Sequence record: MT446416.1
Length of the DNA stretch: 64,000 nt
From: Escherichia virus TH47
Strand: one strand, 5' to 3'
Shown here: positions 3,482-62,509 of the stretch, in pieces
Layout: each line of letters opens with the position of its first letter
Position numbering within the stretch: the stretch's first letter is position 1
The notes under the pieces: model-generated
What the model was told of the DNA's origin: nothing
The model's input: the letters and a program-made list of their open reading frames with translations, nothing else
The model's database searches: none
Made by a program: the position numbers and the translations under genes

Positions 3482-4978
3482 ATGACATACAGAATGTGGA
3501 AAAAAGGTAGAACCAATGATTACAAGTTCATTGACTCTGCCATAGCAGAACAATACAACATCGGTGGTGTTGACATGTGGCTTTATGCCTATGTCGGACC
3601 AAAACAAGTCGCTGATAACACTGATTTATCATATGGCGGTGATTATTATGGTTCAGATAGTACCGTTGTGTCAAGCATTGGTGATTTAATTTTTGGTGAC
3701 ACTCCAAGTCGTAACTATAATCTCGAAGCTATCACCTTAAGTTGCGTCTACCAAGTCCAAGAAGCAACTCCTGACTTGAAAATCCCAGGATTGTTCTTCA
3801 ACTTTAACACTATGGACATCACAATTCATTATAACACAATGATTCAGCGTTTGGGAAGAAAAATTATGCCAGGTGACGTAATCGAACTCCCTAACTTACG
3901 TGATTTTGATGTACTTGGTAAAGATTCTGGTTTAAATCGCTTCTATGTAGTACAAGATGGGTTTAGAACATCAGAAGGTTACTCAGTTACATGGCAACAT
4001 CACATTTACAAACTCCGTGTTAAACCTCTTACTGATTCACCAGAGTATTCAGACCTTCTAGGTAACAATAACTACCCTGATGACCCAGATGAACCAAACA
4101 ACGGCAATGGTAATACTGATGATGGCTCTTCAGAGAACAGCAGCTATGGTAATGAAATGGACATTATGAACCGTATCATTATGCAAGCTGATGATGAAGT
4201 ACCATACATTCATTTTACTAACGAACACTTGTTCGATGACAGACCAGATACCGTTGATTTGTCTAAGTATATGCTAAATGGATACGAATTACCAGAGGAA
4301 CCAGCAAATAAAATGTATTTCCTCAAGAAAACTTACCCAGTACTGAAAGAACTATCTAATGATACATGGATTTCTGTAGAAGTCAAGCGTGGAACAATCT
4401 TTCCTCGCAAACCGATGGATGGTGACTTCTTCTTTAAAGAAAACGAGGCTGATGTCACTGGCTTCTCATTGTATCAATACGATAAATCTGCCAAAAAGTG
4501 GCTAAATTGTGATGTTGAGTATACTACAGAAAGCACACCACCACAAGGGGTTGATGATTTTTATATTGAATACAAAGAACCACACATTTATCAGTACTTA
4601 AATGGTAAATGGGGAGAACCAGAAGTAACTTACGTTAATGACCCATTCACTTCTAATAGTGTTTATGGAAATATCGATTCACAACAAGATTATCGTCCTA
4701 AGATTCCTCCAGCACGAGGTACAGTTCCTGAAGGTAATATGTTCCCAAGTGATGCAGTTGATGGTGATTACTACTATCGTACCGATTATACACCAGTAAC
4801 CCTATGGGAATACAGTGCATCCAAGAATTCTTGGGTGATTTTCGATTACGGTGGTAGAAAACCGTGGGAAGGTGCAGATCTTGCTCTAACAGAATTTGTT
4901 AATAGCCCGAACCGTGTACCATTACATGATGCAGTTAAACCTAATACAGCGTATCGTATACATAAGGATTCAGAATGA
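3482..4978 (+). CDS. hypothetical protein (possible virion structural)
   Basis: 498-aa ORF; ATG 3482 with GGAG SD; ORF-track start 3470 is TTG; stop overlaps next ATG (ATGA). Confidence 0.5.
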   Translation: MTYRMWKKGRTNDYKFIDSAIAEQYNIGGVDMWLYAYVGPKQVADNTDLSYGGDYYGSDSTVVSSIGDLIFGDTPSRNYNLEAITLSCVYQVQEATPDLKIPGLFFNFNTMDITIHYNTMIQRLGRKIMPGDVIELPNLRDFDVLGKDSGLNRFYVVQDGFRTSEGYSVTWQHHIYKLRVKPLTDSPEYSDLLGNNNYPDDPDEPNNGNGNTDDGSSENSSYGNEMDIMNRIIMQADDEVPYIHFTNEHLFDDRPDTVDLSKYMLNGYELPEEPANKMYFLKKTYPVLKELSNDTWISVEVKRGTIFPRKPMDGDFFFKENEADVTGFSLYQYDKSAKKWLNCDVEYTTESTPPQGVDDFYIEYKEPHIYQYLNGKWGEPEVTYVNDPFTSNSVYGNIDSQQDYRPKIPPARGTVPEGNMFPSDAVDGDYYYRTDYTPVTLWEYSASKNSWVIFDYGGRKPWEGADLALTEFVNSPNRVPLHDAVKPNTAYRIHKDSE

Positions 4979-6318
4979 AAATAGATTATTATTATGATGG
5001 TCAATTTCGTCGAGTACTGAAACATCTTATCAGAGTGTTTGGTGAATTTCAAGTACAAAATGGTGTTGATGCTGACGGAAAACCAAAATATAAGAAAGTT
5101 CCTTGCCGCTATGCAGATATTTCACGTATGGCAGCAGCAATTATTAATGGTAACAGTGAGAACGTGCTTCCAACAGCACCAATCATGACCATTAGTGTAA
5201 ACCAACTTAAACTAGATCGCAAGTCAGTTCGTTCAAACGCAAATGAAACATTAGTTATGGGGACTAACAAGTCCCCTGGAATTAACGAATATACTAAAGA
5301 CTTAGATAAACAGTATAAAGTAACTCGTCATAACCCAGTACCTTGGACATTTACGTTTGATGTTAATATTTGGGTTACACAAACACAAACTAAAATGGAA
5401 CTATTTGAGCAAATTTCAACATTGTTTGCTCCTAGTATTCAATTACAACTCTCCGAGAACCCACTGGATTGGACATCATTGAGTGATGTGGAGTTGATTG
5501 ACTGTCAATTTACTACTCGTGGTTTCCCACAAGGAACCGATAGTGATTTGGATATAATGGTATTGACATTTGAAACCACAATTTGGTTCTCTTTGCCAGC
5601 TATTGTTGAGAAACCAAAACTTATCCAACAAATCACCACCAATATTAAAGGTGCTCGTGATGAACTTGATTTTGAAATTGGTAATTACTCGGATATCATT
5701 ACTGATGTATTCACACCAAAGAACTTATGTATTAAAGTTGATGAAATAACAAACTCTGAACTTAATATCCCAGATACTTACCAACTCACTCTTGTTAGTC
5801 AATCACTATCAGAAACATCACCAAATGGTGGGATTTATTCATGGGAAAAATACCTTAAGTACTTGGACCCAGAATATGAAGACAAGACTGTAGGTATTAA
5901 ATTCCAACAAGCTATAGAAGAGGATAACCCACTAAAAGGACATATCTCTTCATTTGGGGAAGGGGCTGATTCTAACAAGATTGTAGTTCAGCTTGATAAT
6001 AGTAATTATACTGTTGATTATACAATACATGGATTCATTAGTAAAGACTCTTTGTTATATAACGCACTACCTGAACAATATTATGTAAATAATAGCATAC
6101 ATAACATCATTTACAAAGAGACTGAAATCCCAGCGAACTATTTGTTTAAAATTACCAATGATGGAGCAGAACTTATTGAGCCATCGCGAGTACACCACTA
6201 TGTTTATAATATGGAAGATAGTGGATATTATAGATATAATGACAAATTCAAATGGCATAAGAGTATTATGTCAGTATATCGTCAGGGATATTGGAAAATA
6301 ACTTTCACTGACAAATAA
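4975..6318 (+). CDS. hypothetical protein
   Basis: 447-aa ORF translationally coupled to upstream gene; no recognisable motif. Confidence 0.5.
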   Translation: MKIDYYYDGQFRRVLKHLIRVFGEFQVQNGVDADGKPKYKKVPCRYADISRMAAAIINGNSENVLPTAPIMTISVNQLKLDRKSVRSNANETLVMGTNKSPGINEYTKDLDKQYKVTRHNPVPWTFTFDVNIWVTQTQTKMELFEQISTLFAPSIQLQLSENPLDWTSLSDVELIDCQFTTRGFPQGTDSDLDIMVLTFETTIWFSLPAIVEKPKLIQQITTNIKGARDELDFEIGNYSDIITDVFTPKNLCIKVDEITNSELNIPDTYQLTLVSQSLSETSPNGGIYSWEKYLKYLDPEYEDKTVGIKFQQAIEEDNPLKGHISSFGEGADSNKIVVQLDNSNYTVDYTIHGFISKDSLLYNALPEQYYVNNSIHNIIYKETEIPANYLFKITNDGAELIEPSRVHHYVYNMEDSGYYRYNDKFKWHKSIMSVYRQGYWKITFTDK

Positions 6319-6330
6319 GGAGGTGTTGTT

Positions 6331-6795
6331 ATGAATGAAGCAGTAGGTGCTATATTTTTATCTAAAAGTACTGGACACATGATGTTAAACTTGAGATCAG
6401 AAAGAAGTACGTATTCTAACAACTGGGCATTTGTTGGTGGGAAGCTTGAGTATAATGAAACTCCGTTACAGGGTCTTATGCGTGAGATTAAAGAAGAGCT
6501 AGGTGATTCTATTCCAACGATAATAGATATTATACCATTTGATGTATTTTGTACGAAGAATGGTAAATTTAAATATTATTCATTTGTCATTGTAGTTGAA
6601 AATGAATTCGTACCTACTTTAAATCATGAGAGTTCTGGTTATGCATGGGTTAAGATTGGCTCATGGCCCAAACCATTACATCCTGGTGCAAAAAACACAT
6701 TACTTAACACAAATTTAATGAAGGATTTCTATTCATTGTGGGAAAGTATACGACAAGGTACACAGTTTGTCAACAGCTTACCATATCGATATTAA
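6331..6795 (+). CDS. Nudix hydrolase
   Basis: Nudix box GGKLEYNETPLQGLMREIKEELG (G-x5-E-x7-REUxEExGU); AGGAGG SD. Confidence 0.8.
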   Translation: MNEAVGAIFLSKSTGHMMLNLRSERSTYSNNWAFVGGKLEYNETPLQGLMREIKEELGDSIPTIIDIIPFDVFCTKNGKFKYYSFVIVVENEFVPTLNHESSGYAWVKIGSWPKPLHPGAKNTLLNTNLMKDFYSLWESIRQGTQFVNSLPYRY

Positions 6796-6800
6796 TAAAA

Positions 6801-6830
6801 AAAGGAGCCAATGGCTCCTTTTTTCTTTTT
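6801..6830. terminator. bidirectional rho-independent terminator
   Basis: aaaggagcc/ggctccttt stem flanked by A-run and T-run, between convergent genes. Confidence 0.7.
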
Positions 6831-7929
6831 ATACCCCAATTAGTGGGATACCTGTTATATTAAGTAGAACAGATACTTGAAGCTTAACTGACTCACCTGC
6901 CGAAAGGTTGTTTACTATACCATCTACGCGGAACCCTAAGTTTTTATTAGAGTTAAGAGAGTTAATCACCCAGTTTTCGTAATCCGCTTTTGTAATACCA
7001 TTCGGATTTGGGAGAGTTGGGTCAACACCATTAATTACCATAGATACATCCCAATTAGGGCGACTACTTGTAATTACATCCTTGATTGATTCTAGTTGTG
7101 TAATGCGACGTGGGTCTGGAATCTGACTTGCACCAATTGAACCAGGAACAAATTTACCTTGGTTATCAACATAGAACTGACCTTTAATGAAAAATGTTTT
7201 TGAATTATACGGAAGAGAAACAATTTCACCTGATGAATCACTAACTTCACGAATCATAATTTTCAATTCATAAAAATAGTTACTACCAAATTCAAACACA
7301 CCAGTACCATTTGTGAATGTTGTCCAGTTATTTGAATCAACCTGTGAAGTACCACCCATATTGAAGTAAGCTAATGGCTTAGTACTGTTACTTTGTGTAA
7401 ATTCAATATATTTCTTACCTGTATCATAGTTGATATCAAGTAGTGTGGAGTACTCTTTATTTTCTGGACGAGATGTTTGAATTTCACGCCATTCTTTATT
7501 TTTCATTAGGACACGAAGGGAATCACCATTACTGGTAAGAACCATACGACCCATAATACTATTTTCACCATCTGGTACGGTGTTGAAAATTGAAATCATT
7601 GGGATAGATGCCCAGTCAGCTTCAGATGCAGTATCTACTGGCTGACGAGCATTATCAACTAATGCAAGAAGTAGTTCGCCAGTGTTGCCAGTATTTCTGT
7701 ACCAAATCTGACCATTAACGTTACCACGAGGTGCAGTTGCTCCACTGAAGTTCTCAACCAAGTGGAGGAAGTTTTCGTTCCATGCTTGACCGTAACCAAC
7801 TTTATTTCGACCTGCAAAGTTTAACGGTACTGGGTTACTACCAGGTTGGTTTGGTCCTAATATTACGTTATTTGGAATGGTAGCATAAACGCTACCATTA
7901 CTTCTATAAATTGTATAACTTACACTCAT
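6829..7929 (-). CDS. hypothetical protein (possible tail/baseplate component)
   Basis: 366-aa ORF, ATG with AAGGTGA SD; first of three co-oriented genes. Confidence 0.5.
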   Translation of the reverse strand: MSVSYTIYRSNGSVYATIPNNVILGPNQPGSNPVPLNFAGRNKVGYGQAWNENFLHLVENFSGATAPRGNVNGQIWYRNTGNTGELLLALVDNARQPVDTASEADWASIPMISIFNTVPDGENSIMGRMVLTSNGDSLRVLMKNKEWREIQTSRPENKEYSTLLDINYDTGKKYIEFTQSNSTKPLAYFNMGGTSQVDSNNWTTFTNGTGVFEFGSNYFYELKIMIREVSDSSGEIVSLPYNSKTFFIKGQFYVDNQGKFVPGSIGASQIPDPRRITQLESIKDVITSSRPNWDVSMVINGVDPTLPNPNGITKADYENWVINSLNSNKNLGFRVDGIVNNLSAGESVKLQVSVLLNITGIPLIGV

Positions 7930-42122: not shown

Positions 42123-42350
42123 TTATTTTGAATTATACAAGCAGTACAGGTATACCAACGGAGTAAAATGTTCTGAATCTATAGCATATATTAACTGTGT
42201 AACATATATTCCGTATAAATCTCGACTTTTATCTCGGTACATTAACAATGAATTATTAAAGTATGGGTCAACCCAGTACTTTATATTATTTAACATCAAT
42301 GTATTGTTTCTGTATCCTGATAATTTTAAGCATTTAGCCAACTTTTTCAC
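42123..42350 (-). CDS. possible small ORF (75 aa), uncertain
   Basis: GTG start, overlaps upstream gene by 17 nt, no clear SD. Confidence 0.25.
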   Translation of the reverse strand: MKKLAKCLKLSGYRNNTLMLNNIKYWVDPYFNNSLLMYRDKSRDLYGIYVTQLIYAIDSEHFTPLVYLYCLYNSK

Positions 42351-42711
42351 AATTACTTAGTAAGTGTGTGATTACATCGGCAGTGAATGGTCCTAGAACT
42401 AAAACTTCTTCTCCATTACCGAAGATACTCAATGGTACAGATTGTTGTCCTGCTAGATATTCGATTTGTTCTAATTCGAAAATGTCATCAGCAGCATAAA
42501 CAACCTGTTCCATTTCATTATCTTTAATCCATGACTGCCAATGTTCTTTAAACTGCTTCGCTTCGTATTCCAGCACATAGTTAGGTGATTCTGGATTGTA
42601 CTGATGTAGCATTGTCATACCAGCCATGACCAGTTCTTTTGGTGATGGAGTAGAATCTTTCAGTACTACGATAGCTTGGATAGTTTTAACTTTAACGTTT
42701 TGAGCAGCCAT
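42334..42711 (-). CDS. hypothetical protein
   Basis: 125-aa ORF with AGAGGT SD. Confidence 0.5.
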   Translation of the reverse strand: MAAQNVKVKTIQAIVVLKDSTPSPKELVMAGMTMLHQYNPESPNYVLEYEAKQFKEHWQSWIKDNEMEQVVYAADDIFELEQIEYLAGQQSVPLSIFGNGEEVLVLGPFTADVITHLLSNCEKVG

Positions 42712-43051: not shown

Positions 43052-43528
43052 TTATTTTATAATGTATAAGTGTTTTTCTGCATTAACCAGTCTGTGGTCA
43101 ATGATTTCTTTGATAACGTTCCAGTTACCACCGCCTAAATCGGCTCCAATTTTCGGGAAGTGTACATGAACAGTGCGTTCAACGTTACATAAGTAATTGA
43201 GTTGTTTGAAAACATCATCGATTGCATCATAACTCACATACTTAGAACCGTCATTACCATAGTACTTTTGGGTAATGCAGTTTGCGATAAGCAAATCATC
43301 ACTTATAGAAGAATATGAAATTTGTCCTGTTCTTAGAAATCCCATTTCCTTTTCATATGCTTTATAATCATCATATGCCATCGGGTAACGATTTCTTAGT
43401 TCTTTTGCAAAACCCGAACCCATCTTACCCTGTGCATTACAACCATGAGCGATTATATGCAACGCGGTTTGATCATCAGTAACAGTGTTGAACAATTCAA
43501 ACAAATTACCTAGGTGTTCATGTATCAT
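43052..43528 (-). CDS. macro-domain-like protein (ADP-ribose binding/processing fold)
   Basis: HGCNAQGKMGSGFA and FPKIGADLGGGNW resemble the two glycine-rich macro-domain motifs; GGAGAA SD. Confidence 0.55.
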   Translation of the reverse strand: MIHEHLGNLFELFNTVTDDQTALHIIAHGCNAQGKMGSGFAKELRNRYPMAYDDYKAYEKEMGFLRTGQISYSSISDDLLIANCITQKYYGNDGSKYVSYDAIDDVFKQLNYLCNVERTVHVHFPKIGADLGGGNWNVIKEIIDHRLVNAEKHLYIIK

Positions 43529-43867: not shown

Positions 43868-44110
43868 TTATTTAGGGTTGCTCGAAACCTCTACTGAAGC
43901 GATGAATGCCAAAATATCATCTTTACTGAAAGCTTCAATAATATAAGCAACCGCTTTATCGTACTGTTCTTTCTTAGTAGTGTATTCTTTCATTTTGTGA
44001 ATTTTACGTTGTGCTTTAACTTTTGCAGCTTCCATATCAGGCATTTTAAATTCAACACCCAATGTGTCAGCTAAATGTTTTGCACGAGATGATACTTTAT
44101 CAATATTCAT
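43868..44110 (-). CDS. hypothetical protein
   Basis: 80-aa ORF. Confidence 0.4.
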   Translation of the reverse strand: MNIDKVSSRAKHLADTLGVEFKMPDMEAAKVKAQRKIHKMKEYTTKKEQYDKAVAYIIEAFSKDDILAFIASVEVSSNPK

Positions 44111-44358
44111 TAATTCCAGCGACCTTCTTTAAGACCTTCAACGAAACCAGTACAGCCACCTGGAACGTAAACATCGTTTACGAAAATTTGTGGAACCTGT
44201 CGTACTGGCTCGCCACATAGTTCAGATAGTTTAGCACCATCAATACCAGCGGTAACAATATCGATAAACTCCATATCAAATTTGTTATTTTCACATACTG
44301 CTTTTGCAGTGTCGCAGAATTTACAACCAGTAGTGCGACCATAAATTTTAACTTTCAT
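44110..44358 (-). CDS. glutaredoxin/NrdC-like redoxin
   Basis: CKFC active-site CxxC near N-terminus and PQIFVND...GG motif. Confidence 0.65.
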   Translation of the reverse strand: MKVKIYGRTTGCKFCDTAKAVCENNKFDMEFIDIVTAGIDGAKLSELCGEPVRQVPQIFVNDVYVPGGCTGFVEGLKEGRWN

Positions 44359-44758
44359 TTCTTTTCCCTTTATTTCGTTGAAACATCGTAACAGCCTTTA
44401 TTATACTGTTACACATTCGTTCAGTCAAATACTTTTGACAATCTAGTACATCAATGTACATGAACTTATCCAATTCTGGGTGACTTCTACCATATCGGTT
44501 TGTGTAAGTACTCTTACACTCTAACTCTTCTGGTATAGGCTTATCTTTGGCTGTATAGAAAAATAAAACTAAACGTTTCCCCTTTCTATACGATACATCA
44601 CCAAGAAACAGAAGATCATCTTCATCGATTTCATATCCTGTCTCTTCGTAGCATTCGCGAACAGCAGCCTCTTTAAATGTTTCTGTACCTTCAGTTTTAC
44701 CTTTAGGTAAGTCCCAGTGATTCTGTCCGTGTTGTATGCCCGATAAGTATCTGACCAT
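44348..44758 (-). CDS. Nudix hydrolase (second copy)
   Basis: Nudix box GKTEGTETFKEAAVRECYEETGY; start ATG 44758 very close to a -10 element (possible short leader). Confidence 0.65.
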   Translation of the reverse strand: MVRYLSGIQHGQNHWDLPKGKTEGTETFKEAAVRECYEETGYEIDEDDLLFLGDVSYRKGKRLVLFFYTAKDKPIPEELECKSTYTNRYGRSHPELDKFMYIDVLDCQKYLTERMCNSIIKAVTMFQRNKGKRNES

Positions 44759-44834
44759 CACGATAAAATATTATACCACAACTATAACGCATAATCTTAT
44801 CTCTTTATCATCAAGTGATGTTCAGATACTAGTA

Positions 44835-44867: not shown

Positions 44868-45983
44868 TTAGAACATTTGCTTGATTGCTTCAATACGCAA
44901 TTCAGCAACAAAATCACGAATCTCTGATGTTTGGAGTTCACCATCTTTCACTAACTGCTGAATATCAGGTAATTCAACATCAGTATAACGATCATAAACT
45001 TTAATAATCAAATCTTCAAGATCAGAATCAATTTCTTTGTTCAAAATGAAGTTTTCCAGTACTTTGTAAAGGAAATCTTCGCCACCATTGTTTTTGATAT
45101 TCATCTCCAGTAAGATTTGTCCCATTTCAACGGGGGTCTTCTTACGGAAGGTTTTAATATCTTCACGGAAACGCTTGATGTAATTACTAAACTTCACGTA
45201 CTTAACTGGAACCTTAATAGAACCATTAAGTACTGAATCATTATTTACTTCTTCATTTTCAAGAAGTACTGTCCATAAGAAATATGGTTTATATTCTTCT
45301 GTACAATTTGCAGCGATAGCATCAATTAATTCCAGACGTTTCTTGGTAACTGGAACTGTAGTAAATGCCTTTTCGTAATAACCAAATTGTACCAGAGTTT
45401 TGATAAACTTGGAAGGGTTTTCTTCAGAAAGTGCTTTTTCGAATTCAACAAAAACACGATCTGGAACTAGATGGTCTAGTTCACCAGTACTAACCATATC
45501 TTTACACATTGTCATAGTATCATCATGGATTGTAAAGTCTGAGTAACGTGTAGCGAAACGTGCCAAACGTAGTACACGCAATGGATCTTCTTTAAAGTGT
45601 TCTGATACATGACGAAGTACTTTGTTCTTGATATCAGCTTTCCCGCCATAAGGGTCGATGTGAATCTGGAGTACTGGATCATACGCTATGCTATTTACCG
45701 TAATATCCCTTCTGTATAGATCTTGCTCTAGTGTCACGCCTTTAGTATTCACTTCGAAGCCACCGTAGCCAGTACCAGTTTTACGTTCGGTACGTGCCAA
45801 TGCGTGCTCATTACCCTCTGGACTTAGATACACTGGAAAATCCTTACCTACTTGCTTATAGCCAATACTTTGTAAGTACTTAATATCGGATTCGGTAGCA
45901 CCGACAATGACATAATCTTTGTCTTTTGCACGAATACCCATTAAACGGTCCCTCACATAGCCGCCCACCAAATACTTTTTCAT
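44868..45983 (-). CDS. cca: tRNA nucleotidyltransferase (CCA-adding enzyme), head domain only
   Basis: YLVGGYVRD...KDKDYV, EHALARTERK, GYGGF, TLEQDLYRRDITVNS, EDPLRVLRLARF match E. coli Cca as recalled; no HD domain. Confidence 0.85.
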   Translation of the reverse strand: MKKYLVGGYVRDRLMGIRAKDKDYVIVGATESDIKYLQSIGYKQVGKDFPVYLSPEGNEHALARTERKTGTGYGGFEVNTKGVTLEQDLYRRDITVNSIAYDPVLQIHIDPYGGKADIKNKVLRHVSEHFKEDPLRVLRLARFATRYSDFTIHDDTMTMCKDMVSTGELDHLVPDRVFVEFEKALSEENPSKFIKTLVQFGYYEKAFTTVPVTKKRLELIDAIAANCTEEYKPYFLWTVLLENEEVNNDSVLNGSIKVPVKYVKFSNYIKRFREDIKTFRKKTPVEMGQILLEMNIKNNGGEDFLYKVLENFILNKEIDSDLEDLIIKVYDRYTDVELPDIQQLVKDGELQTSEIRDFVAELRIEAIKQMF

Positions 45984-47047
45984 AATATACCTTCCTCTGA
46001 AAGATGTTTTTTTAATACAGTTAAGTGGTCTTCATAATATGTTACACGTATTAATTTAATAAAATTCTTTTCACAATATTGTGTCTTTATAGTATCGTTA
46101 TCCTTGATGTTTTTCAATTTATCTTCTCCACCCCAATGAGGTGATTTCTCAAAATGTTGTTTACCATCATACTCAATACAAATATCATAATCAACCAAAT
46201 AAAAATCAAATCTTAATAACATTTTATTTTTACAGTCACTAAATGTTTGTTCTTTATTAAATTTTATACCATTTTCAATTAAAAAACGTGTTATTTCTCT
46301 ACTAGCTCTGGATTCAGTATGTTCAGATGAGCATATTGGGCAACCTTGTTTTTTATTTTTTGCTATATGAAAATTTGGAATGATATAAAAAGAATTATTA
46401 TGTTTTTTACAAATTATTTCAACATGAGTGCTACTATTAATGTAGATGACTTTTGAATAGTCATATACATTACCATGAATTTCTTTTGCTCGTTCAACAA
46501 ATTCAGCGGTGGTGAATGCGTGTGCTAATCTGGTTTTTTCAAATCGACAAATAGAGCAACCCTGACCACTTTGTATATTACTAATTTCCATTTCATCAAC
46601 GTGACCACATTTTAAGCATTTATAAGTTAATTTGGTTCTTTTATCTTTAATTATTGGTTGTTCTAAAAGTAATTCACATTCACCAGTCATTAGACTTTTT
46701 GAAGTCTTATAAAGATAATATCTATAATTTGCATTGTCATATTTCCCAATGATATATTTCATACCTTTCGTTTTTATATCATTTATATTTCTTTTTGTAT
46801 ATATAATACCATCTTTTTCAACAACAGTTCTTGTAAAACTAGATTTCCATTCATCACTTGATGTTATAGCAAATCCTAAAATATTATATCCTTTTTCTAT
46901 TATTTCTTCAAAATGTTCTTTAGGTGTTTTTGATGTTTTAATTAATTTTGGTGATAAATCTTCGGGACGCATCCATTCGAAACGCATACCTAATTCTTCA
47001 TGGAAATATACCTTCTCGTTATTTTCATTAAAATAAAATTTATACAT
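45980..47047 (-). CDS. homing-endonuclease-like protein (zinc ribbons plus Vsr-like nuclease motif)
   Basis: CLKCGH...CSIC and CPIC zinc-ribbon pairs; RFDFYLVDYDICIEYDGKQHF motif shared with the 39257-41251 protein. Confidence 0.55.
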   Translation of the reverse strand: MYKFYFNENNEKVYFHEELGMRFEWMRPEDLSPKLIKTSKTPKEHFEEIIEKGYNILGFAITSSDEWKSSFTRTVVEKDGIIYTKRNINDIKTKGMKYIIGKYDNANYRYYLYKTSKSLMTGECELLLEQPIIKDKRTKLTYKCLKCGHVDEMEISNIQSGQGCSICRFEKTRLAHAFTTAEFVERAKEIHGNVYDYSKVIYINSSTHVEIICKKHNNSFYIIPNFHIAKNKKQGCPICSSEHTESRASREITRFLIENGIKFNKEQTFSDCKNKMLLRFDFYLVDYDICIEYDGKQHFEKSPHWGGEDKLKNIKDNDTIKTQYCEKNFIKLIRVTYYEDHLTVLKKHLSEEGIL

Positions 47048-48648: not shown

Positions 48649-48981
48649 TTACTCTTCGTCTTCAGTCAAGTCTTCTTGAACTGGATGTTCTGGGTGGTTA
48701 CGGCGATGCAATTTGATGCTTTTGTCTTTACCTAAGACAGTTTCCATTTTTTCAAATGAATCACCAATTGCTTTGTATAAATCTGCATCATCGGCTGTAA
48801 CACTCTTACCGCCTGATGTTAAAGTTACGGAATATTGGTTCTTATGCTCTTTCTTCACATGAACACCAATATGCAGTACTGAAGAATCACTAAACTTCGT
48901 TAGTGCATTTGCTTCAGCATGAATTGCGTCATTGATTGCTGGAGTAATATCAACATTACCTTGGATAACTAAATCTAGCAT
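48649..48981 (-). CDS. ribosome hibernation factor-like protein (HPF/RaiA family)
   Basis: Collinear with bacterial HPF as recalled: GNVDIT, VTLTSGGKSV, DLYKAIGDSFEKME, KDKSIK; acidic tail. Confidence 0.6.
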   Translation of the reverse strand: MLDLVIQGNVDITPAINDAIHAEANALTKFSDSSVLHIGVHVKKEHKNQYSVTLTSGGKSVTADDADLYKAIGDSFEKMETVLGKDKSIKLHRRNHPEHPVQEDLTEDEE

Positions 48982-49005: not shown

Positions 49006-49932
49006 TTAAAGATTACTAACTAACAATTCTGCACGGTTTCCTACTTGACGATACCATAGAGAATTCTTAATTTCTTTTTTGAACTTGTTATCATTTTGAT
49101 TATCAACGCTTTTCCATAATTTATTGAAAGTATTTAACTTATCAACTCCTAATGTAAATGCCATCTCAAATAAAATTCGTTGTTGTTCAGCCGTAAGGTT
49201 TGTTGCATTTCTTTTCTTCAATAATAAAACTAAATCATTATTAGTTCGTTCCATGTCAGACAATAAAAGTTTATGTGCTTGTGACTTCGTAATACCATTA
49301 CGATACTTACTTGCATCTGATTCTTTCTTTCCAAGATAATGTCCGTACCCAATAGTGAAGTTACCTTTTATATCACGATACGGATAAAATTTAGAATTTC
49401 GATATGGAACTCCAACTTTCCCACCAAGTAAACGTCGTTTGTTCTTGGACTGAAATTCAATAGAACCTTCAGCTTCTTTGATGTGATTGACAATTTCTGG
49501 ATCTTTATAATCAAACAGTACAGTCACATCTGGTAACAATACGTGCTTCAAATCCTCTTTTGTTGGGATAAAGATACCCTGAGAAGTATGAAGAGTTGCA
49601 TTTAAGTTGATGTTCTTCAACAAAATGACATAATCTTCAATCTGTACATTTTTAGGTTTAAATTTCTGTGCAATAGAATAATAACTATCACCAGGTTGAA
49701 CCGTATAATGTTTCTCGCTGCTTGGAACTGCTTTTGGTACTGATACCTTTGGTAGTTCCTGCTTTTGAATTTGAGTAAACTGTGGTTTTAAATTATGCAC
49801 CTGACTTTCGTCTAATGATGGTACATGATCACTTTGAGAAAAACCATAAAATCCAATAGCAGCGAATAGGGCTGATGAAACTAATACGCCTACGGCAATT
49901 TTAGTTTTCAGTGCTTTTTTCGCTTTTTTCAA
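49006..49932 (-). CDS. endolysin: N-terminal signal-anchor, LysM, T4-lysozyme-like (GH24) domain
   Basis: TM KIAVGVLVSSALFAAIGFYGF; LysM YTVQPGDSYYSIAQKF; catalytic EAEGS...YRDIKGNFTIGYGH; start likely TTG 49932 after AAGGAGG. Confidence 0.75.
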   Translation of the reverse strand: MKKAKKALKTKIAVGVLVSSALFAAIGFYGFSQSDHVPSLDESQVHNLKPQFTQIQKQELPKVSVPKAVPSSEKHYTVQPGDSYYSIAQKFKPKNVQIEDYVILLKNINLNATLHTSQGIFIPTKEDLKHVLLPDVTVLFDYKDPEIVNHIKEAEGSIEFQSKNKRRLLGGKVGVPYRNSKFYPYRDIKGNFTIGYGHYLGKKESDASKYRNGITKSQAHKLLLSDMERTNNDLVLLLKKRNATNLTAEQQRILFEMAFTLGVDKLNTFNKLWKSVDNQNDNKFKKEIKNSLWYRQVGNRAELLVSNL

Positions 49933-50099
49933 AACGCCTCCTTTGTTGGTTGTTAACAATGAGCAATCACAAAGAGGGCAAAGAGGCCATTTGCAAAAGC
50001 CTCATTGGACTTTCTACAGTACTCAGTTGTTCTTTGGAACATTTAAGTAGTATAGCATACTTTTTAGTTATATCAAGACCTATTTACCAAATAACCACA

Positions 50100-50510
50100 T
50101 TAATCGTAATATGTTCTACCAATGGTGATGTGATATTTGAAATATTTAGATGCTAAACCAAGTTCATCACGAATTTGTGCAATGAAATCATCTTCAAACT
50201 CTATGATAAAGAATGACCCAGGTTTCTTATTGTCTTTTACTTCTTCGATGAAAGGTTCGAACTTAATCTTAACTTTCATACCATCGTACTTTTTCCAGTA
50301 CTCTGGATTTGGTGGCACTTCACCACGAACGATACTGACATGTGCTCCCCATTGGGGGTCTTTAATATCAATATGTAAGTCAGTTCTGATGAAGTACTGG
50401 TAGTATCGAACCAACTGTAATGGAAGTTGCAGTACTAACCAGAAGTCCTTCTTCTTTTTCATAGTGCCACGATCTGGATCATACACCAGAGTTCCTTCCA
50501 TTTCAATCAT
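50100..50510 (-). CDS. 2H phosphoesterase superfamily protein
   Basis: Two H-x-S/T-x motifs, HVSI and HITI, about 67 residues apart. Confidence 0.55.
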   Translation of the reverse strand: MIEMEGTLVYDPDRGTMKKKKDFWLVLQLPLQLVRYYQYFIRTDLHIDIKDPQWGAHVSIVRGEVPPNPEYWKKYDGMKVKIKFEPFIEEVKDNKKPGSFFIIEFEDDFIAQIRDELGLASKYFKYHITIGRTYYD

Positions 50511-52120: not shown

Positions 52121-52345
52121 TTAAACGTTATCATCATCCAATATTTCACGGTAAACATAATAAACATGTGTACCTAGAAGAACAATGAGTACAATGAAGA
52201 CTAACCAGAATGGTACAAAATGCAGTACAAGTGCAAATGCCATTACGGTAATAATCATTACTACTGAACTGAAAATAAGACTGGTCGCTTTTTTAAATCC
52301 AGATAGTACATCATTCAAAACGCGTTTCATAAATGAATCAACCAT
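52121..52345 (-). CDS. small membrane protein (two predicted TM helices)
   Basis: Two hydrophobic segments. Confidence 0.4.
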   Translation of the reverse strand: MVDSFMKRVLNDVLSGFKKATSLIFSSVVMIITVMAFALVLHFVPFWLVFIVLIVLLGTHVYYVYREILDDDNV

Positions 52346-52922
52346 TTTTCTTCCTCATATAATCCATATAGCAAGTTCTGCATAGACTCTTGTATGATTC
52401 ATCACCACCAATAAAGACTTTATCAGTACTTTCAACTATACGGGCATTCATAGTGGCTTCTTTGCCACACTTCTGATTCTCACACACGTTCTTAAGTTCA
52501 TGTATGTCATCAGCTATTTCGAACAGTCTTTGTGAACCTTCAAAAAGATTGGATTCAAAATCTGTTCGGATTCCATAACAGGAAACATCAACACCATAAT
52601 TATCTGCTATATCAGCTAAATGGTCAATTTGTTCTCTGTTTAAAAATTGACATTCATCAACATAGATACTGTTAATGTCAACGTCATTTTTGAGTGTTTC
52701 TTTAACTTTAAGAAGAACACTAATGTCATTTTTTGGAATTACTTCAGCCTCAGCTTCGATGCCAATTCTCGAAGTAATCTTTCCTGTTCCATAACGATCA
52801 TCAAGTGCACTGGTTAAGTAAATTACCTTCATTCCATTTTTCTTATGGTTATATGCTTTTTGTAAAAGATGAGTACTTTTACCACTAGACATACTACCAT
52901 AGTAATATACTAATTTACTCAT
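52338..52922 (-). CDS. tdk: thymidine kinase
   Basis: P-loop GSMSSGKST, VDECQFL, CYGIRTDF, C-terminal zinc ribbon; collinear with E. coli Tdk as recalled. Confidence 0.9.
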   Translation of the reverse strand: MSKLVYYYGSMSSGKSTHLLQKAYNHKKNGMKVIYLTSALDDRYGTGKITSRIGIEAEAEVIPKNDISVLLKVKETLKNDVDINSIYVDECQFLNREQIDHLADIADNYGVDVSCYGIRTDFESNLFEGSQRLFEIADDIHELKNVCENQKCGKEATMNARIVESTDKVFIGGDESYKSLCRTCYMDYMRKKNG

Positions 52923-60232: not shown

Positions 60233-62509
60233 TTATTTTTTACTGTACCATTGCATTTCACGGATATCTAATAGTACCTTCGTAGCCAACTTTATGTTTG
60301 GTCGCTTCGGTAGATGGGTTTTATGATACGCCACATTTCGGATGTAGTCAACCTTTTCGTTGAAATAATCCATAACTTCTTGATACAACCACTTCCCGTT
60401 ACGAATGTCCATCAACATAGCAGCATCTGGTCGGTGAACTTGGATGATGCCAGTTTCAAGTGCTTCCTCGGCTGTATTCAGCAGCCTGATTGTATGCATA
60501 GCATGTTTGCAATTTCCATGTAATGCGGTTTTTCCATTTCTACGAGTAATGAGTGTTCCGTTGGGAACAGAAAAACACACAGTTCTGTAATTAGTAACTG
60601 GAATTTTTTCAAGATTTTGTTTCATGTTCATTTTTTCGGTTTTGGGTTTCATATTGATATGAATTTGATATATATCAACACTACCAAAATTGGTTTCGTT
60701 TGTGTATGGTCCCCATTTTGATGTTTCATAACCACATAGCAATGCTAGTTTTTGAACATCATCAGCTAATAATGAATTGGTAGTATAATATACAAATGTA
60801 TCATTGTCATTAACTAAATTTCGTTTTGTTCCATCACCTTGTAACAAACCTTTCAGAAGGAAATCCATTTTACGTTTTGTTAAATCAAATACCCAATTTG
60901 GAATTCGTTTATTATATGAACCATGTCCACAATCATTATATAATGCTTCAGCTACTTCACTTGGGAATGTATATCTTGATTCGTCATTAGCTTGATAATC
61001 TTTCTTTTCTATAATGTATTCATTAAACATTAATTGACCAGATTTTTTGTATTTTGATAAAGCACAACGCATACCTTGACTAGTTTTTGACTGGGAAATA
61101 TATAAAGATTTTACTTTACCATCCCTGAAATTTATGCACCCATCTGAAATAAACCATCCCATGAGTTGAAGATAAACTTTGATATCCATGTAGTCAATTG
61201 GACTTTTTTTATCTTTGTGTTCTTTAGTTATTGGGGATATTGTATTCAAAATTTTATATGTTTCTTTTAATTGTGCTGCTTCTACAAATTTCCAATCAGA
61301 CATATCTTTTTGTTGATTTCGTGCATAATCCTTAACATACATTCGGTGGTTAGCAGTCACTAAAGTATCTTGGTGATGACCAGTGAAATGGTATAGATTG
61401 CCATTATATAAATTATCAAAACGTTCAGTGTATTTCTGATATTCAACTTTGTGATTTTTGTCAAAAGTAGCTAATAGATCGTTTTCAGTAATATCATCAA
61501 ATAACTTCCAACCATCTTTAGTTAAGAATTCAGTATCAAAACTATAACAGTCATAACCGTGGTGTGATTCAAGAATAGCACGTTTGGCATTACGGTTCTG
61601 CTTCCATTTGTGATAACTCTTACGGTTCTCACTATTTTCTTTGTATTCCTTTTCATTGAATTTTACAATGAGTTCAGGACGAACTTTTAATTCTTCCGAA
61701 GTACGTTCTTTATTGAAGTAACGTAGTGAACCATCAGCATTCACTGTACTTTCATTCGGGTTGATAATTACCCCAAAGATGTTTTCACCGTAATGGATTA
61801 GTTCATATCCAGAATTGTAATTCAATAAATTGAAATCACGATCTAATACTTTGTCAGTACTATAATTATGTACTAAACGTACAAAATGATATTGTTTCAA
61901 TGCTTGTGTTGAAACTAATTGTAATGAAGTATCACGCATGTATTTTTCGAAATCAATTTTTGTAGCATTGAATGGGTGAAGATTGGATTTATTCAAACGG
62001 TCAACCAAATACTGCGGGAATGTATCATACATCCATGAAAGTACTTCGTCAACTGGATGTTCTTCTAAAATTTCATTTAGTTTACGTTCAGCAATTCGTT
62101 CCTTATCGAGCCATCCGTGGTGATTCGACATACGCTTAACCTGATTGTATGCATAACCACTGTATGAATGAGCAATCTTTGAACTCAATAATTGCTGATT
62201 GAATGAGCGTAGATAGTCATAGATTTCAGTACTTTCTACGATGTGTTCCGGTTTAACCCATAGTGATTCAAGAATGTTTGGGTTAGCTTCTGTATAAAGA
62301 CTTAAGTACTGATTGACTTCATAAAATTTAGTATCTTCTTCAGAAGGATCTGAAACTTCCTTAACATTAAAAAAAGGAGTTAGGATAAATTCTTTGTTTG
62401 CAAGGAAGATACCACGATAATCGGTATCACTTTCTGGTGTGCTTGTGCCATACGCCTGTGAACCCGCTAAGTGTTTAACAATTGTTTGTTCTAGAAAATT
62501 GTTTTTCAT
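60233..62509 (-). CDS. Pol-beta-superfamily nucleotidyltransferase-like protein interrupted by an intein
   Basis: N-terminal GS-x9-SDTD nucleotidyltransferase signature; 346-aa insertion with intein and LAGLIDADG motifs; ATGA coupling with upstream gene. Confidence 0.65.
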   Translation of the reverse strand: MKNNFLEQTIVKHLAGSQAYGTSTPESDTDYRGIFLANKEFILTPFFNVKEVSDPSEEDTKFYEVNQYLSLYTEANPNILESLWVKPEHIVESTEIYDYLRSFNQQLLSSKIAHSYSGYAYNQVKRMSNHHGWLDKERIAERKLNEILEEHPVDEVLSWMYDTFPQYLVDRLNKSNLHPFNATKIDFEKYMRDTSLQLVSTQALKQYHFVRLVHNYSTDKVLDRDFNLLNYNSGYELIHYGENIFGVIINPNESTVNADGSLRYFNKERTSEELKVRPELIVKFNEKEYKENSENRKSYHKWKQNRNAKRAILESHHGYDCYSFDTEFLTKDGWKLFDDITENDLLATFDKNHKVEYQKYTERFDNLYNGNLYHFTGHHQDTLVTANHRMYVKDYARNQQKDMSDWKFVEAAQLKETYKILNTISPITKEHKDKKSPIDYMDIKVYLQLMGWFISDGCINFRDGKVKSLYISQSKTSQGMRCALSKYKKSGQLMFNEYIIEKKDYQANDESRYTFPSEVAEALYNDCGHGSYNKRIPNWVFDLTKRKMDFLLKGLLQGDGTKRNLVNDNDTFVYYTTNSLLADDVQKLALLCGYETSKWGPYTNETNFGSVDIYQIHINMKPKTEKMNMKQNLEKIPVTNYRTVCFSVPNGTLITRRNGKTALHGNCKHAMHTIRLLNTAEEALETGIIQVHRPDAAMLMDIRNGKWLYQEVMDYFNEKVDYIRNVAYHKTHLPKRPNIKLATKVLLDIREMQWYSKK
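60512..61549 (-). mobile_element. intein with LAGLIDADG homing endonuclease (346 aa)
   Basis: Starts CYSFDTEFLT (block A), block B TANH, LAGLIDADG motifs LMGWFISDG and LLQGDG, ends HGN before Cys +1; codons checked against DNA. Confidence 0.7.

Follow-up and report, generated by a model that had tools for sequence, protein, structure and literature searches.

A 2H-SAK phosphoesterase gene of Escherichia virus TH47 and its possible role in RNA-end healing

The window analyzed here is a stretch of 64,000 nucleotides from Escherichia virus TH47 (sequence record MT446416.1), and one of its minus-strand genes encodes a small 2H phosphoesterase of the 2H-SAK family. The gene carries both catalytic motifs of its superfamily, is conserved down to remote homologs, yields a model with the 2H fold, and has relatives that recur next to RNA-repair genes in other genomes. 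We infer for the product the role of a metal-independent cyclic phosphodiesterase that heals 2',3'-cyclic phosphate ends of RNA or tRNA, a reading of substrate, product, and role to which we give about an even chance. A sequence-only reading of the window had offered two functions, RNA-end healing and degradation of cyclic-nucleotide defense signals. These are the right two candidates; comparative genomics favors the first, and the second is retained at a lower weight, as unlikely. The gene and its motifs, whose positions were verified via the reverse complement of the window sequence, are as follows (aa, amino acids).

50100..50510, minus strand: 2H-SAK phosphoesterase gene, from the ATG start to the TAA end, 136 aa, stop codon included.
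50331..50342, minus strand: first catalytic motif, H57-V-S59-I (residues 57-60, codons CAT GTC AGT ATC), followed by the conserved R62-G63-E64.
50121..50132, minus strand: second catalytic motif, H127-I-T129-I (residues 127-130, codons CAC ATC ACC ATT), followed by G131-R132.

The open reading frame (ORF) for a 136-aa protein, whose strand the sequence-only reading had left unstated, is confirmed, and the spacing of about 67 residues given there for HVSI and HITI is a fair description: 70 residues separate one histidine from the other and 66 lie between the motifs, in agreement with the approximately 60-90 residues that part the motif pair in the 2H superfamily. Taken alone, the motif pair is weak and non-diagnostic evidence: of the 365 stop-to-stop ORFs with 100-200 aa that a related 352-kb genome contains, 15 show the pattern H-x-[ST]...H-x-[ST] with a spacing of 45-110. 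The window gene goes beyond such a chance motif because of the conservation of its catalytic tetrad, the Pfam 2H-SAK matches in 23/23 close homologs (PF22547 at E<=0.01; best E 3.9e-10), and its predicted fold. A chance motif in a non-gene is ruled out, as several phages share a 100% identical copy and conservation extends to homologs of 25% identity.

Conservation was counted in the window protein and 150 representatives with mutual identity <=50%, drawn from the 903 clusters that a profile search collected at E<=1e-3 (328 of them at E<=1e-10). H57 is present in 151/151 of the aligned sequences, S/T59 in 151/151, H127 in 147/148, and T/S129 in 148/148, while R or K occupies position 132 in 116/149. 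Further strongly conserved positions are G6, Y10, P12, W24, Y36, Y37, G63, W72, R114, G118, L119, and G131. In a separate alignment of 106 sequences (A2), H57 and H127 are the sole invariant columns. Conservation of this kind implies that purifying selection maintains the window protein as an enzyme with catalytic activity.

The sole Pfam family matched by the window protein is PF22547, "2H-SAK" (23.8 bits, E 5.9e-5; gathering cut-off 27 bits), and the match covers the C-terminal 46 residues only; the conserved N-terminal module (G6, Y10, P12, W24, Y36-Y37) is poorly covered by this model. The orthologs GAP32_178 (32 bits) and L087 (27.7 bits) exceed the cut-off, and a precomputed PF22547 match is attached to most of the homologs in databases. 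A 55%-identical homolog is named [quoted passage not shown] in UniRef, whereas PHROG 12204, which the protein matches end to end (2e-65), is labeled "unknown function", and no NCBIfam model matches the window protein or four of its homologs. The name 2H-SAK stands for the Swiss Army Knife RNA-repair 2H phosphoesterase domain, which belongs to the Burroughs and Aravind lineage of predictions. The family forms about 900 clusters at 50% identity; its members are, with few exceptions, standalone proteins of 130-170 aa encoded on contigs of 200-600 kb, mostly of jumbo phages; one protein fuses 2H-SAK to YqeY.

Structure prediction, which the sequence-only reading had recommended as a check, was carried out with a 23-sequence alignment. 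The resulting AlphaFold2 model has a pLDDT (predicted local distance difference test) of 85.1 and a pTM (predicted template modeling score) of 0.77, with a loop at approximately residues 11-24 as its sole weak segment, and the modeled fold is the bilobed alpha+beta fold of 2H proteins. Fold comparison gave matches across the superfamily, with scores of 7.0 for Acb1 (7t27), 6.5 for ns2 of mouse hepatitis virus (MHV), 6.2 and 6.1 for Usb1, 5.8 for the PH0099 2'-5' ligase, 5.8 for CNPase, 5.7 for the Penguinpox cGAMP phosphodiesterase (PDE), 5.7 for DrCPDase, 5.5 for YjcG, 5.1 for AKAP18, 4.9 for the plant CPDase, and 4.2 for ASCC1. Foldseek showed weak agreement with the 2H superfamily. For the predicted model, these scores establish the superfamily and single out no subfamily. 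Searches of PDB sequences with the single sequence, a 23-sequence profile, and a 106-sequence profile returned no significant relative with a solved structure.

The genomic neighborhood of 2H-SAK genes was surveyed at 86 loci, of which 67 were from IMG/VR (mostly contigs of 200-600 kb) and five from contigs of metagenome-assembled genomes (MAGs) in GTDB; the loci were searched with a 16-sequence alignment, and clustering of the 2H proteins at 50% identity yielded 22 lineages. A strict set of RNA-repair markers was defined, comprising RNA ligase, Pnkp or AAA_33 kinase, Pfam-verified RlaP, TROVE/DUF2828, CCA enzyme, HAD_SAK2, and kinase-Metallophos proteins. At least 11/22 lineages have a strict marker within 8 kb (<=8 kb) of the 2H gene. 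As a rough background, about 14% of the genome of the complete relative EC22.5-2 (121Q-like) lies within 8 kb of a strict marker, which gives P ~6e-5 for >=11/22, and a 25% background gives P 0.01 for the same count; all census P values are rough, since auxiliary genes cluster in phage genomes. Genes for Ro-like proteins lie <=1.3 kb from the 2H gene in four lineages (P ~3e-4 even on the assumption that no genome lacks such a gene). Ligase, kinase/phosphatase, nucleotidyltransferase, and an adjacent TROVE-like scaffold are all found among the associates of 2H-SAK.

Within the same 8 kb, NADAR was found in 7/22 lineages, YqeY in 5/22, CCA enzyme in 5/22, and Macro in 3/22. The lineage-specific neighbors thymidine kinase, lysozyme, HPF, and EF-Ts occur in one lineage each and were used as an internal control for synteny kept by descent. 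For 139 neighbors <=3 kb from the gene in 16 further lineage representatives, an unbiased Pfam tally is led by YqeY (3), TROVE together with vWA_Ro60 (2), and Macro (2), with single matches for ADP-ribosylglycohydrolase, PARG, SIR2, and DUF7788.

The 2H gene adjoins RNA-repair genes in the GAP32, 7t3, L089, and L012 lineages. In GAP32-like phages the order is thymidine kinase ... RNA ligase (PHA02142 OB + PF09414), a DUF2828/DUF7788/vWA protein, a small ORF, 2H, lysozyme, HPF, CCA enzyme, Nudix, glutaredoxin, YqeY, and Macro, and Salmonella phage 7t3 has the same arrangement. The ligase and the 504-aa DUF2828/DUF7788/vWA protein occupy 4504-7452 of locus L032 (GAP32) and 2759-5797 of L034 (7t3), between thymidine kinase and 2H; the vWA protein is labeled "structural protein" in 7t3. 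We call DUF2828 "Ro-like (vWA)" with caution, because BLASTP of the GAP32 DUF2828 protein against the TROVE protein of L012 found no link, the vWA "DxSGSM" motif alone being aligned (E 0.11). Locus L012 itself has 2H, HNH, TROVE/Ro60, and RlaP, with a CCA enzyme further downstream, and L089 has RNA ligase, 2H, and then Pnkp (AAA_33 + PNK3P). A TROVE/Ro60-vWA gene is directly upstream of 2H in RsoM2USA and L037.

Other lineages show further genes near 2H, e.g., an AAA_33-Metallophos (kinase-Metallophos) fusion two genes upstream in L031; Metallophos, AAA_33 kinase, and His_Phos_1 in L029; a His_Phos_1 gene overlapping the stop codon on contig P0213; NADAR, an RNA ligase at 3 kb, and DSPc in L007; DUF3307, YqeY, HAD_SAK_2, and NAMPT in L005 and L010; NMNAT in Phosso; and a Macro domain and a Pol-beta nucleotidyltransferase in phage G. 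The phage G protein, called RlaP by an iterated local profile match, is a generic Pol-beta nucleotidyltransferase by Pfam and was left out of the strict count.

In the window's own lineage, all neighbors lie on the minus strand; the distance from the 2H gene is about 10 kb for RlaP, upstream, and about 4 kb for the CCA enzyme, downstream. In the list below, L009 is a contig with identical context, in which the CCA enzyme was observed as it was in the window.

60233..62509, minus strand: RlaP (RNA-ligase-associated Pol-beta nucleotidyltransferase), 758 aa, with a LAGLIDADG insertion (Pfam RlaP 1.2e-14, LAGLIDADG_3 3e-05).
Between RlaP and thymidine kinase, minus strand: many small ORFs.
52338-52922, minus strand: thymidine kinase.
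Between thymidine kinase and the 2H gene, minus strand: six small ORFs with no assigned function.
49006-49959, minus strand: LysM-lysozyme, following the 2H gene after a 140-bp gap.
48649..48981, minus strand: HPF/RaiA ribosome-hibernation-factor homolog (PF02482 Ribosomal_S30AE on L009; same annotation in relatives).
45980-47047, minus strand: zinc-finger ORF, 355 aa (treble-clef DUF4379, weak CapR match), directly upstream of the CCA gene and overlapping its start.
44868..45983, minus strand: class-II CCA-adding tRNA nucleotidyltransferase, 371 aa (Pfam PolyA_pol + PolyA_pol_RNAbd only; syntenic in GAP32, RaK2, and 7t3), a putative downstream partner.
44348..44761, minus strand: Nudix hydrolase, NudE-like (PF00293 on L009; Nudix in relatives' annotation).
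Within the 44110-44761 block, between Nudix and Macro, minus strand: glutaredoxin.
43052..43528, minus strand: Macro-domain protein, Tk.4-like (Pfam Macro 20.3 bits, below the 22-bit cut-off).
42334-42711, minus strand: ORF called peptidyl-tRNA hydrolase in relatives, with no Pfam match here.

The GAP32 ortholog of the window Macro protein scores 23.4 bits, above the cut-off, and the orthology is supported at 9e-58. No tRNA genes were found within the window. The complete relative EC22.5-2 encodes a T4-type Rnl1 (1e-58), a full-length Pnkp (4.8e-42), RlaP, seven tRNAs, and a single 2H gene; Rnl1, Pnkp, RlaP, and 2H thus occur together in one genome. Of the Burroughs-Aravind RNA-repair "syntax" of ligase, nucleotidyltransferase, end-modifying enzymes, and scaffold, no TROVE-like scaffold was found in the 121Q lineage. 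Taken with its surroundings in other phages, the 2H protein is a part of the jumbo-phage auxiliary gene set for RNA repair, translation maintenance, and metabolism of nicotinamide adenine dinucleotide (NAD) and ADP-ribose.

Host anticodon nucleases and other translation-targeting ribonucleases (RNases) leave 2',3'-cyclic phosphate ends. To our knowledge, the recovery of the translation apparatus of giant phages after such an attack is known solely from the T4 Pnkp/Rnl1 pair. In the mechanism that we propose for the 2H-SAK protein, the two His-x-Ser/Thr motifs would face each other across a cleft between two lobes, where one histidine would activate water and the other would protonate the leaving oxygen, opening the five-membered ribose cyclic phosphate. 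The likeliest substrate would be the 2',3'-cyclic phosphate that remains on tRNA or other RNA after cleavage by the metal-independent anticodon or translation-targeting RNases of the host. Opening would produce a monoester end that may be cleared by phosphatases (Pnkp, HAD, or histidine phosphatases), after which RlaP or the CCA enzyme would extend the end and RNA ligases would seal it.

The HD domain of E. coli Cca is the source of its 2',3'-cyclic phosphodiesterase and phosphatase functions, an association echoed in the GAP32 product name. No HD domain was detected in the window CCA enzyme by the Pfam scan, and therefore a trans-acting cyclic phosphodiesterase ahead of CCA repair would make sense. 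The sequence-only reading had suggested just such a link to the CCA enzyme, and both this domain composition and the proximity of CCA enzymes in the lineages counted above favor it. The idea of RNA healing is not new, because an RNA-end-healing role has already been predicted for the 2H proteins that "group 2.2" jumbo phages encode (Iyer et al. 2021, PMC7824862), and the prediction for jumbo-phage 2H proteins in RNA repair was repeated in a 2022 NAD-ADPr survey (PMC9503650). The 2H-SAK family is already catalogued in Pfam and treated in the 2021 jumbo-phage survey, and the window protein adds a member to it.

Several observations weigh against RNA-end healing. In EC22.5-2, Rnl1 and Pnkp are located about 48-50 kb from the 2H gene, so that there is no operonic adjacency in the own lineage, and the ligase-DUF2828 pair found beside 2H in GAP32-like phages is missing at this position in the 121Q and RaK2 lineages. 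Approximately 9/22 lineages have no RNA-repair gene within 8 kb, and the marker set was chosen partly after the contexts had been seen. Given that T4-type Pnkp is annotated with 2',3'-cyclic phosphodiesterase as well as 3'-phosphatase activity, the Rnl1 pathway would seem to have no need of a further cyclic phosphodiesterase. A cautionary precedent is provided by T4 gp57B/Acb1, long annotated as an "RNA ligase" and yet an anti-CBASS nuclease (CBASS, cyclic-oligonucleotide-based antiphage signaling system). Finally, our literature search found no paper under the names 2H-SAK or PF22547, and no experimental work or biochemistry for any member. Because of the T4 precedent, the Pnkp activity, and an own lineage with neither Acb1 nor an adjacent ligase, we hold RNA-end healing at no better than evenly balanced, degradation of an immune signal as unlikely, opening of an ADP-ribose cyclic phosphate as improbable, and any other 2H-type RNA activity as very improbable.

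The strongest of these alternatives is a nuclease that acts like Acb1 or viral ns2, i.e., one that cleaves a second messenger of host defense and thereby disarms abortive infection. Candidate signals include the cyclic di- and trinucleotides of CBASS, the cyclic nucleoside monophosphates of Pycsar, the cyclic oligoadenylates of type III CRISPR, and 2',3'-cyclic-phosphate "alarm" nucleotides. Like Acb1 (152 aa), the window protein is small and standalone, and viruses have repeatedly recruited the 2H fold for signal degradation (PMC11410667); the removal of cyclic-phosphate signals was also proposed by Iyer et al. (PMC7824862). In T4, which has Pnkp and Rnl1 in addition to the 2H protein gp57B/Acb1, the latter is located 1.4 kb from the tRNA cluster, demonstrating that tRNA and RNA-repair surroundings are compatible with an anti-signal role. 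The niche also appears unfilled in the 121Q-like genome, where no Acb1-family gene was found; a local Acb1 hidden Markov model (HMM) found none in the window or the related genome either, and a motif screen together with a Pfam scan found no second 2H or Acb1 gene in the 121Q-like genome.

Against this alternative, nothing ties the window protein to Acb1 at the sequence or profile level. It has no match to Pfam Acb1 (PF23474) even at E<=10, whereas T4 gp57B/Acb1 scores 202.7 bits on this model; hhalign of the 2H-SAK family profile against T4 Acb1 returned a probability of 0.5%; and reciprocal local HMMs of 2H-SAK and Acb1 gave noise only. T4 Acb1 (PDB 7T26/7T27) is 13% identical to the window protein, and the motif contexts differ, being HVSIVRGE and HITIGR in the window protein vs. 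HSTICYSR and HITLSYN in T4 Acb1. On contig L087/L088, 4.4 kb separate a true Acb1 (72.4 bits) from a 2H-SAK gene, and in Yersinia phage fHe-Yen9-04, which has the 55%-identical 2H-SAK homolog, a separate 148-aa protein bears the BFVD label "Acb1" (a database label only). The profile tests and this coexistence mean that Acb1 and 2H-SAK are distinct families able to share one genome. An ortholog of Acb1 is rejected, as the protein fails every sequence-level membership test.

The recurring neighbors of 2H-SAK are RNA-repair and ADP-ribose enzymes, which also argues against an immune-signal nuclease, and no known anti-defense gene was recognized nearby except the L087 Acb1, although the neighbors were not scanned against an anti-defense library. 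We consider it doubtful, and rank it slightly below signal cleavage in general, that 2H-SAK constitutes a second phage family of counter-defense nucleases, sequence-unrelated to Acb1, which destroys immune nucleotides or the 2',3'-cyclic-phosphate "damage" signals of tRNA attack and fills the Acb1 niche in 121Q-like jumbo phages.

Other known 2H systems are no closer in sequence. LigT/ThpR and the cyclic phosphodiesterase (CPD) domain of Trl1, the fungal and plant tRNA ligase, show no significant sequence or profile match to the window protein, which is approximately 35-50 residues shorter than LigT/ThpR/CPD and is a standalone phage gene product rather than a ligase domain. The LigT/ThpR Pfam families PF02834 and PF13563 gave no match, and profile searches of PDB reach only E>=1.2 (PH0099). 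The MHV ns2-type 2',5'-oligoadenylate phosphodiesterases of coronaviruses and rotaviruses and the avian poxvirus cGAMP PDE belong to eukaryotic viruses, act on eukaryotic immune signals, and have no sequence relationship to the window protein.

An improbable alternative is the opening of Appr>p, the 1'',2''-cyclic phosphate of ADP-ribose, which is formed by RNA repair of the 2'-phosphotransferase/sirtuin type or by NAD-consuming effectors of the host; Macro would then dephosphorylate the product and Nudix would recycle it. Such a KptA, 2H, and Macro pathway has been described (PMC7824862, PMC9503650), and the NADAR and Macro counts of the census are consistent with it, as are ADP-ribosylglycohydrolase, PARG, and SIR2 among the immediate neighbors and NAMPT or NMNAT near 2H in L005, L010, and Phosso. 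In the window, Macro and Nudix lie 5.3-6.6 kb downstream of 2H on the same strand, and in phage G an "Appr-1-p processing" Macro lies 2.7 kb from 2H. On the other hand, KptA/Tpt1 was not identified in the window or the related genome, where no search aimed at it was made, and T4-type Rnl1/Pnkp repair leaves no 2'-phosphate and therefore yields no Appr>p. The linkage with NAD genes is looser than that with TROVE, ligase, and Pnkp, mostly at >3 kb. The chemistry overlaps that of RNA healing, and one enzyme may have both activities, the opening of Appr>p being the second. Very improbable are a Usb1-like 3' exoribonuclease, a 2'-5' ligase or esterase, and a non-catalytic RNA-end binder, as there is no profile similarity to Usb1 (HVSL) or the LigT Pfam families, the four catalytic residues are strictly conserved, and the genomic context holds no pointer to any of them.

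Because the family recurs beside Ro60/TROVE-like proteins, RlaP, RNA ligases, and Pnkp, it gives tractable access to a repair pathway of greater complexity, which a ribonucleoprotein may scaffold. The family is also a clean test case for whether fold-level likeness to Acb1 predicts anti-CBASS function, and the stakes would rise if 2H-SAK proves to be an Acb1-independent counter-defense nuclease or part of a Ro60-scaffolded phage RNA-repair machine.

Two genes of the window neighborhood carry signs of mobile elements. The RlaP domain covers residues 14-131 and LAGLIDADG_3 residues 551-601 of the 758-aa protein, whereas RlaP of close relatives has about 412 aa; the distance between aligned blocks at this locus is about 1.3 kb in the window vs. 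about 0.46 kb in EC22.5-2. The window RlaP looks like a protein carrying an intein or an in-frame homing-endonuclease insertion. The 355-aa zinc-finger ORF, probably mobile or of the homing type, is missing from EC22.5-2, the blastn alignment breaking exactly there. Downstream of the CCA enzyme, Macro, Nudix, and glutaredoxin form a conserved block, to which GAP32 adds YqeY. The HPF/RaiA homolog, two genes downstream of 2H, is kept in the GAP32, 7t3, and 121Q lineages.

Scans for regulatory signals gave 16 promoter-like sites vs. 21 expected from shuffled sequence, i.e., no excess, and no terminator-like site 3' of the 2H gene. A terminator-like hairpin, GCTCCCCATTGGGGGT, with a T-rich tail is located on the plus strand at 50344-50359, within the 2H coding region beside the HVSI codons; it lies antisense to the gene and probably arose by chance.

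The 5-kb region around the 2H gene is 94-97% identical to that of the Escherichia phages Ecwhy_1, vB_Ec-M-J, BF17, and others (348-386 kb), which are 121Q/PBECO4-like, Rak2-related jumbo myoviruses; the window likewise derives from a 121Q/PBECO4-like jumbo coliphage. By tblastn, the 2H protein was found in 75 GenBank phage records, including all Rak2-like genera at 54-62% identity; remoter matches, at 26-35%, extend to Sinorhizobium phage Phosso, Agrobacterium phage Atu_ph07, Bacillus phage G, and Ralstonia phage RsoM2USA. Five homologs (L035-L039, GTDB) are located on MAG contigs of 36-455 kb assigned to Planctomycetia, Pseudobdellovibrionaceae, Acinetobacter, Alcaligenaceae, and Gammaproteobacteria, and the pooled neighbor tally includes the cellular-looking families LpxB, PSD1/PSCyt2, and CoaE. 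The family may thus extend beyond viruses; alternatively, binning may have placed jumbo-phage contigs in MAGs by mistake.

The survey has a bearing on annotation as well, since identical proteins in GenBank still go under "hypothetical protein", as in JNE01, Turkey3, and WPEC5, or, spuriously, "viral L protein". The latter label is found in fEgEco12 (L001, 8655-9411), where a 43-aa neighbor of the 2H gene is called "nucleocapsid protein"; both names were evidently carried over in error from RNA viruses of eukaryotes.

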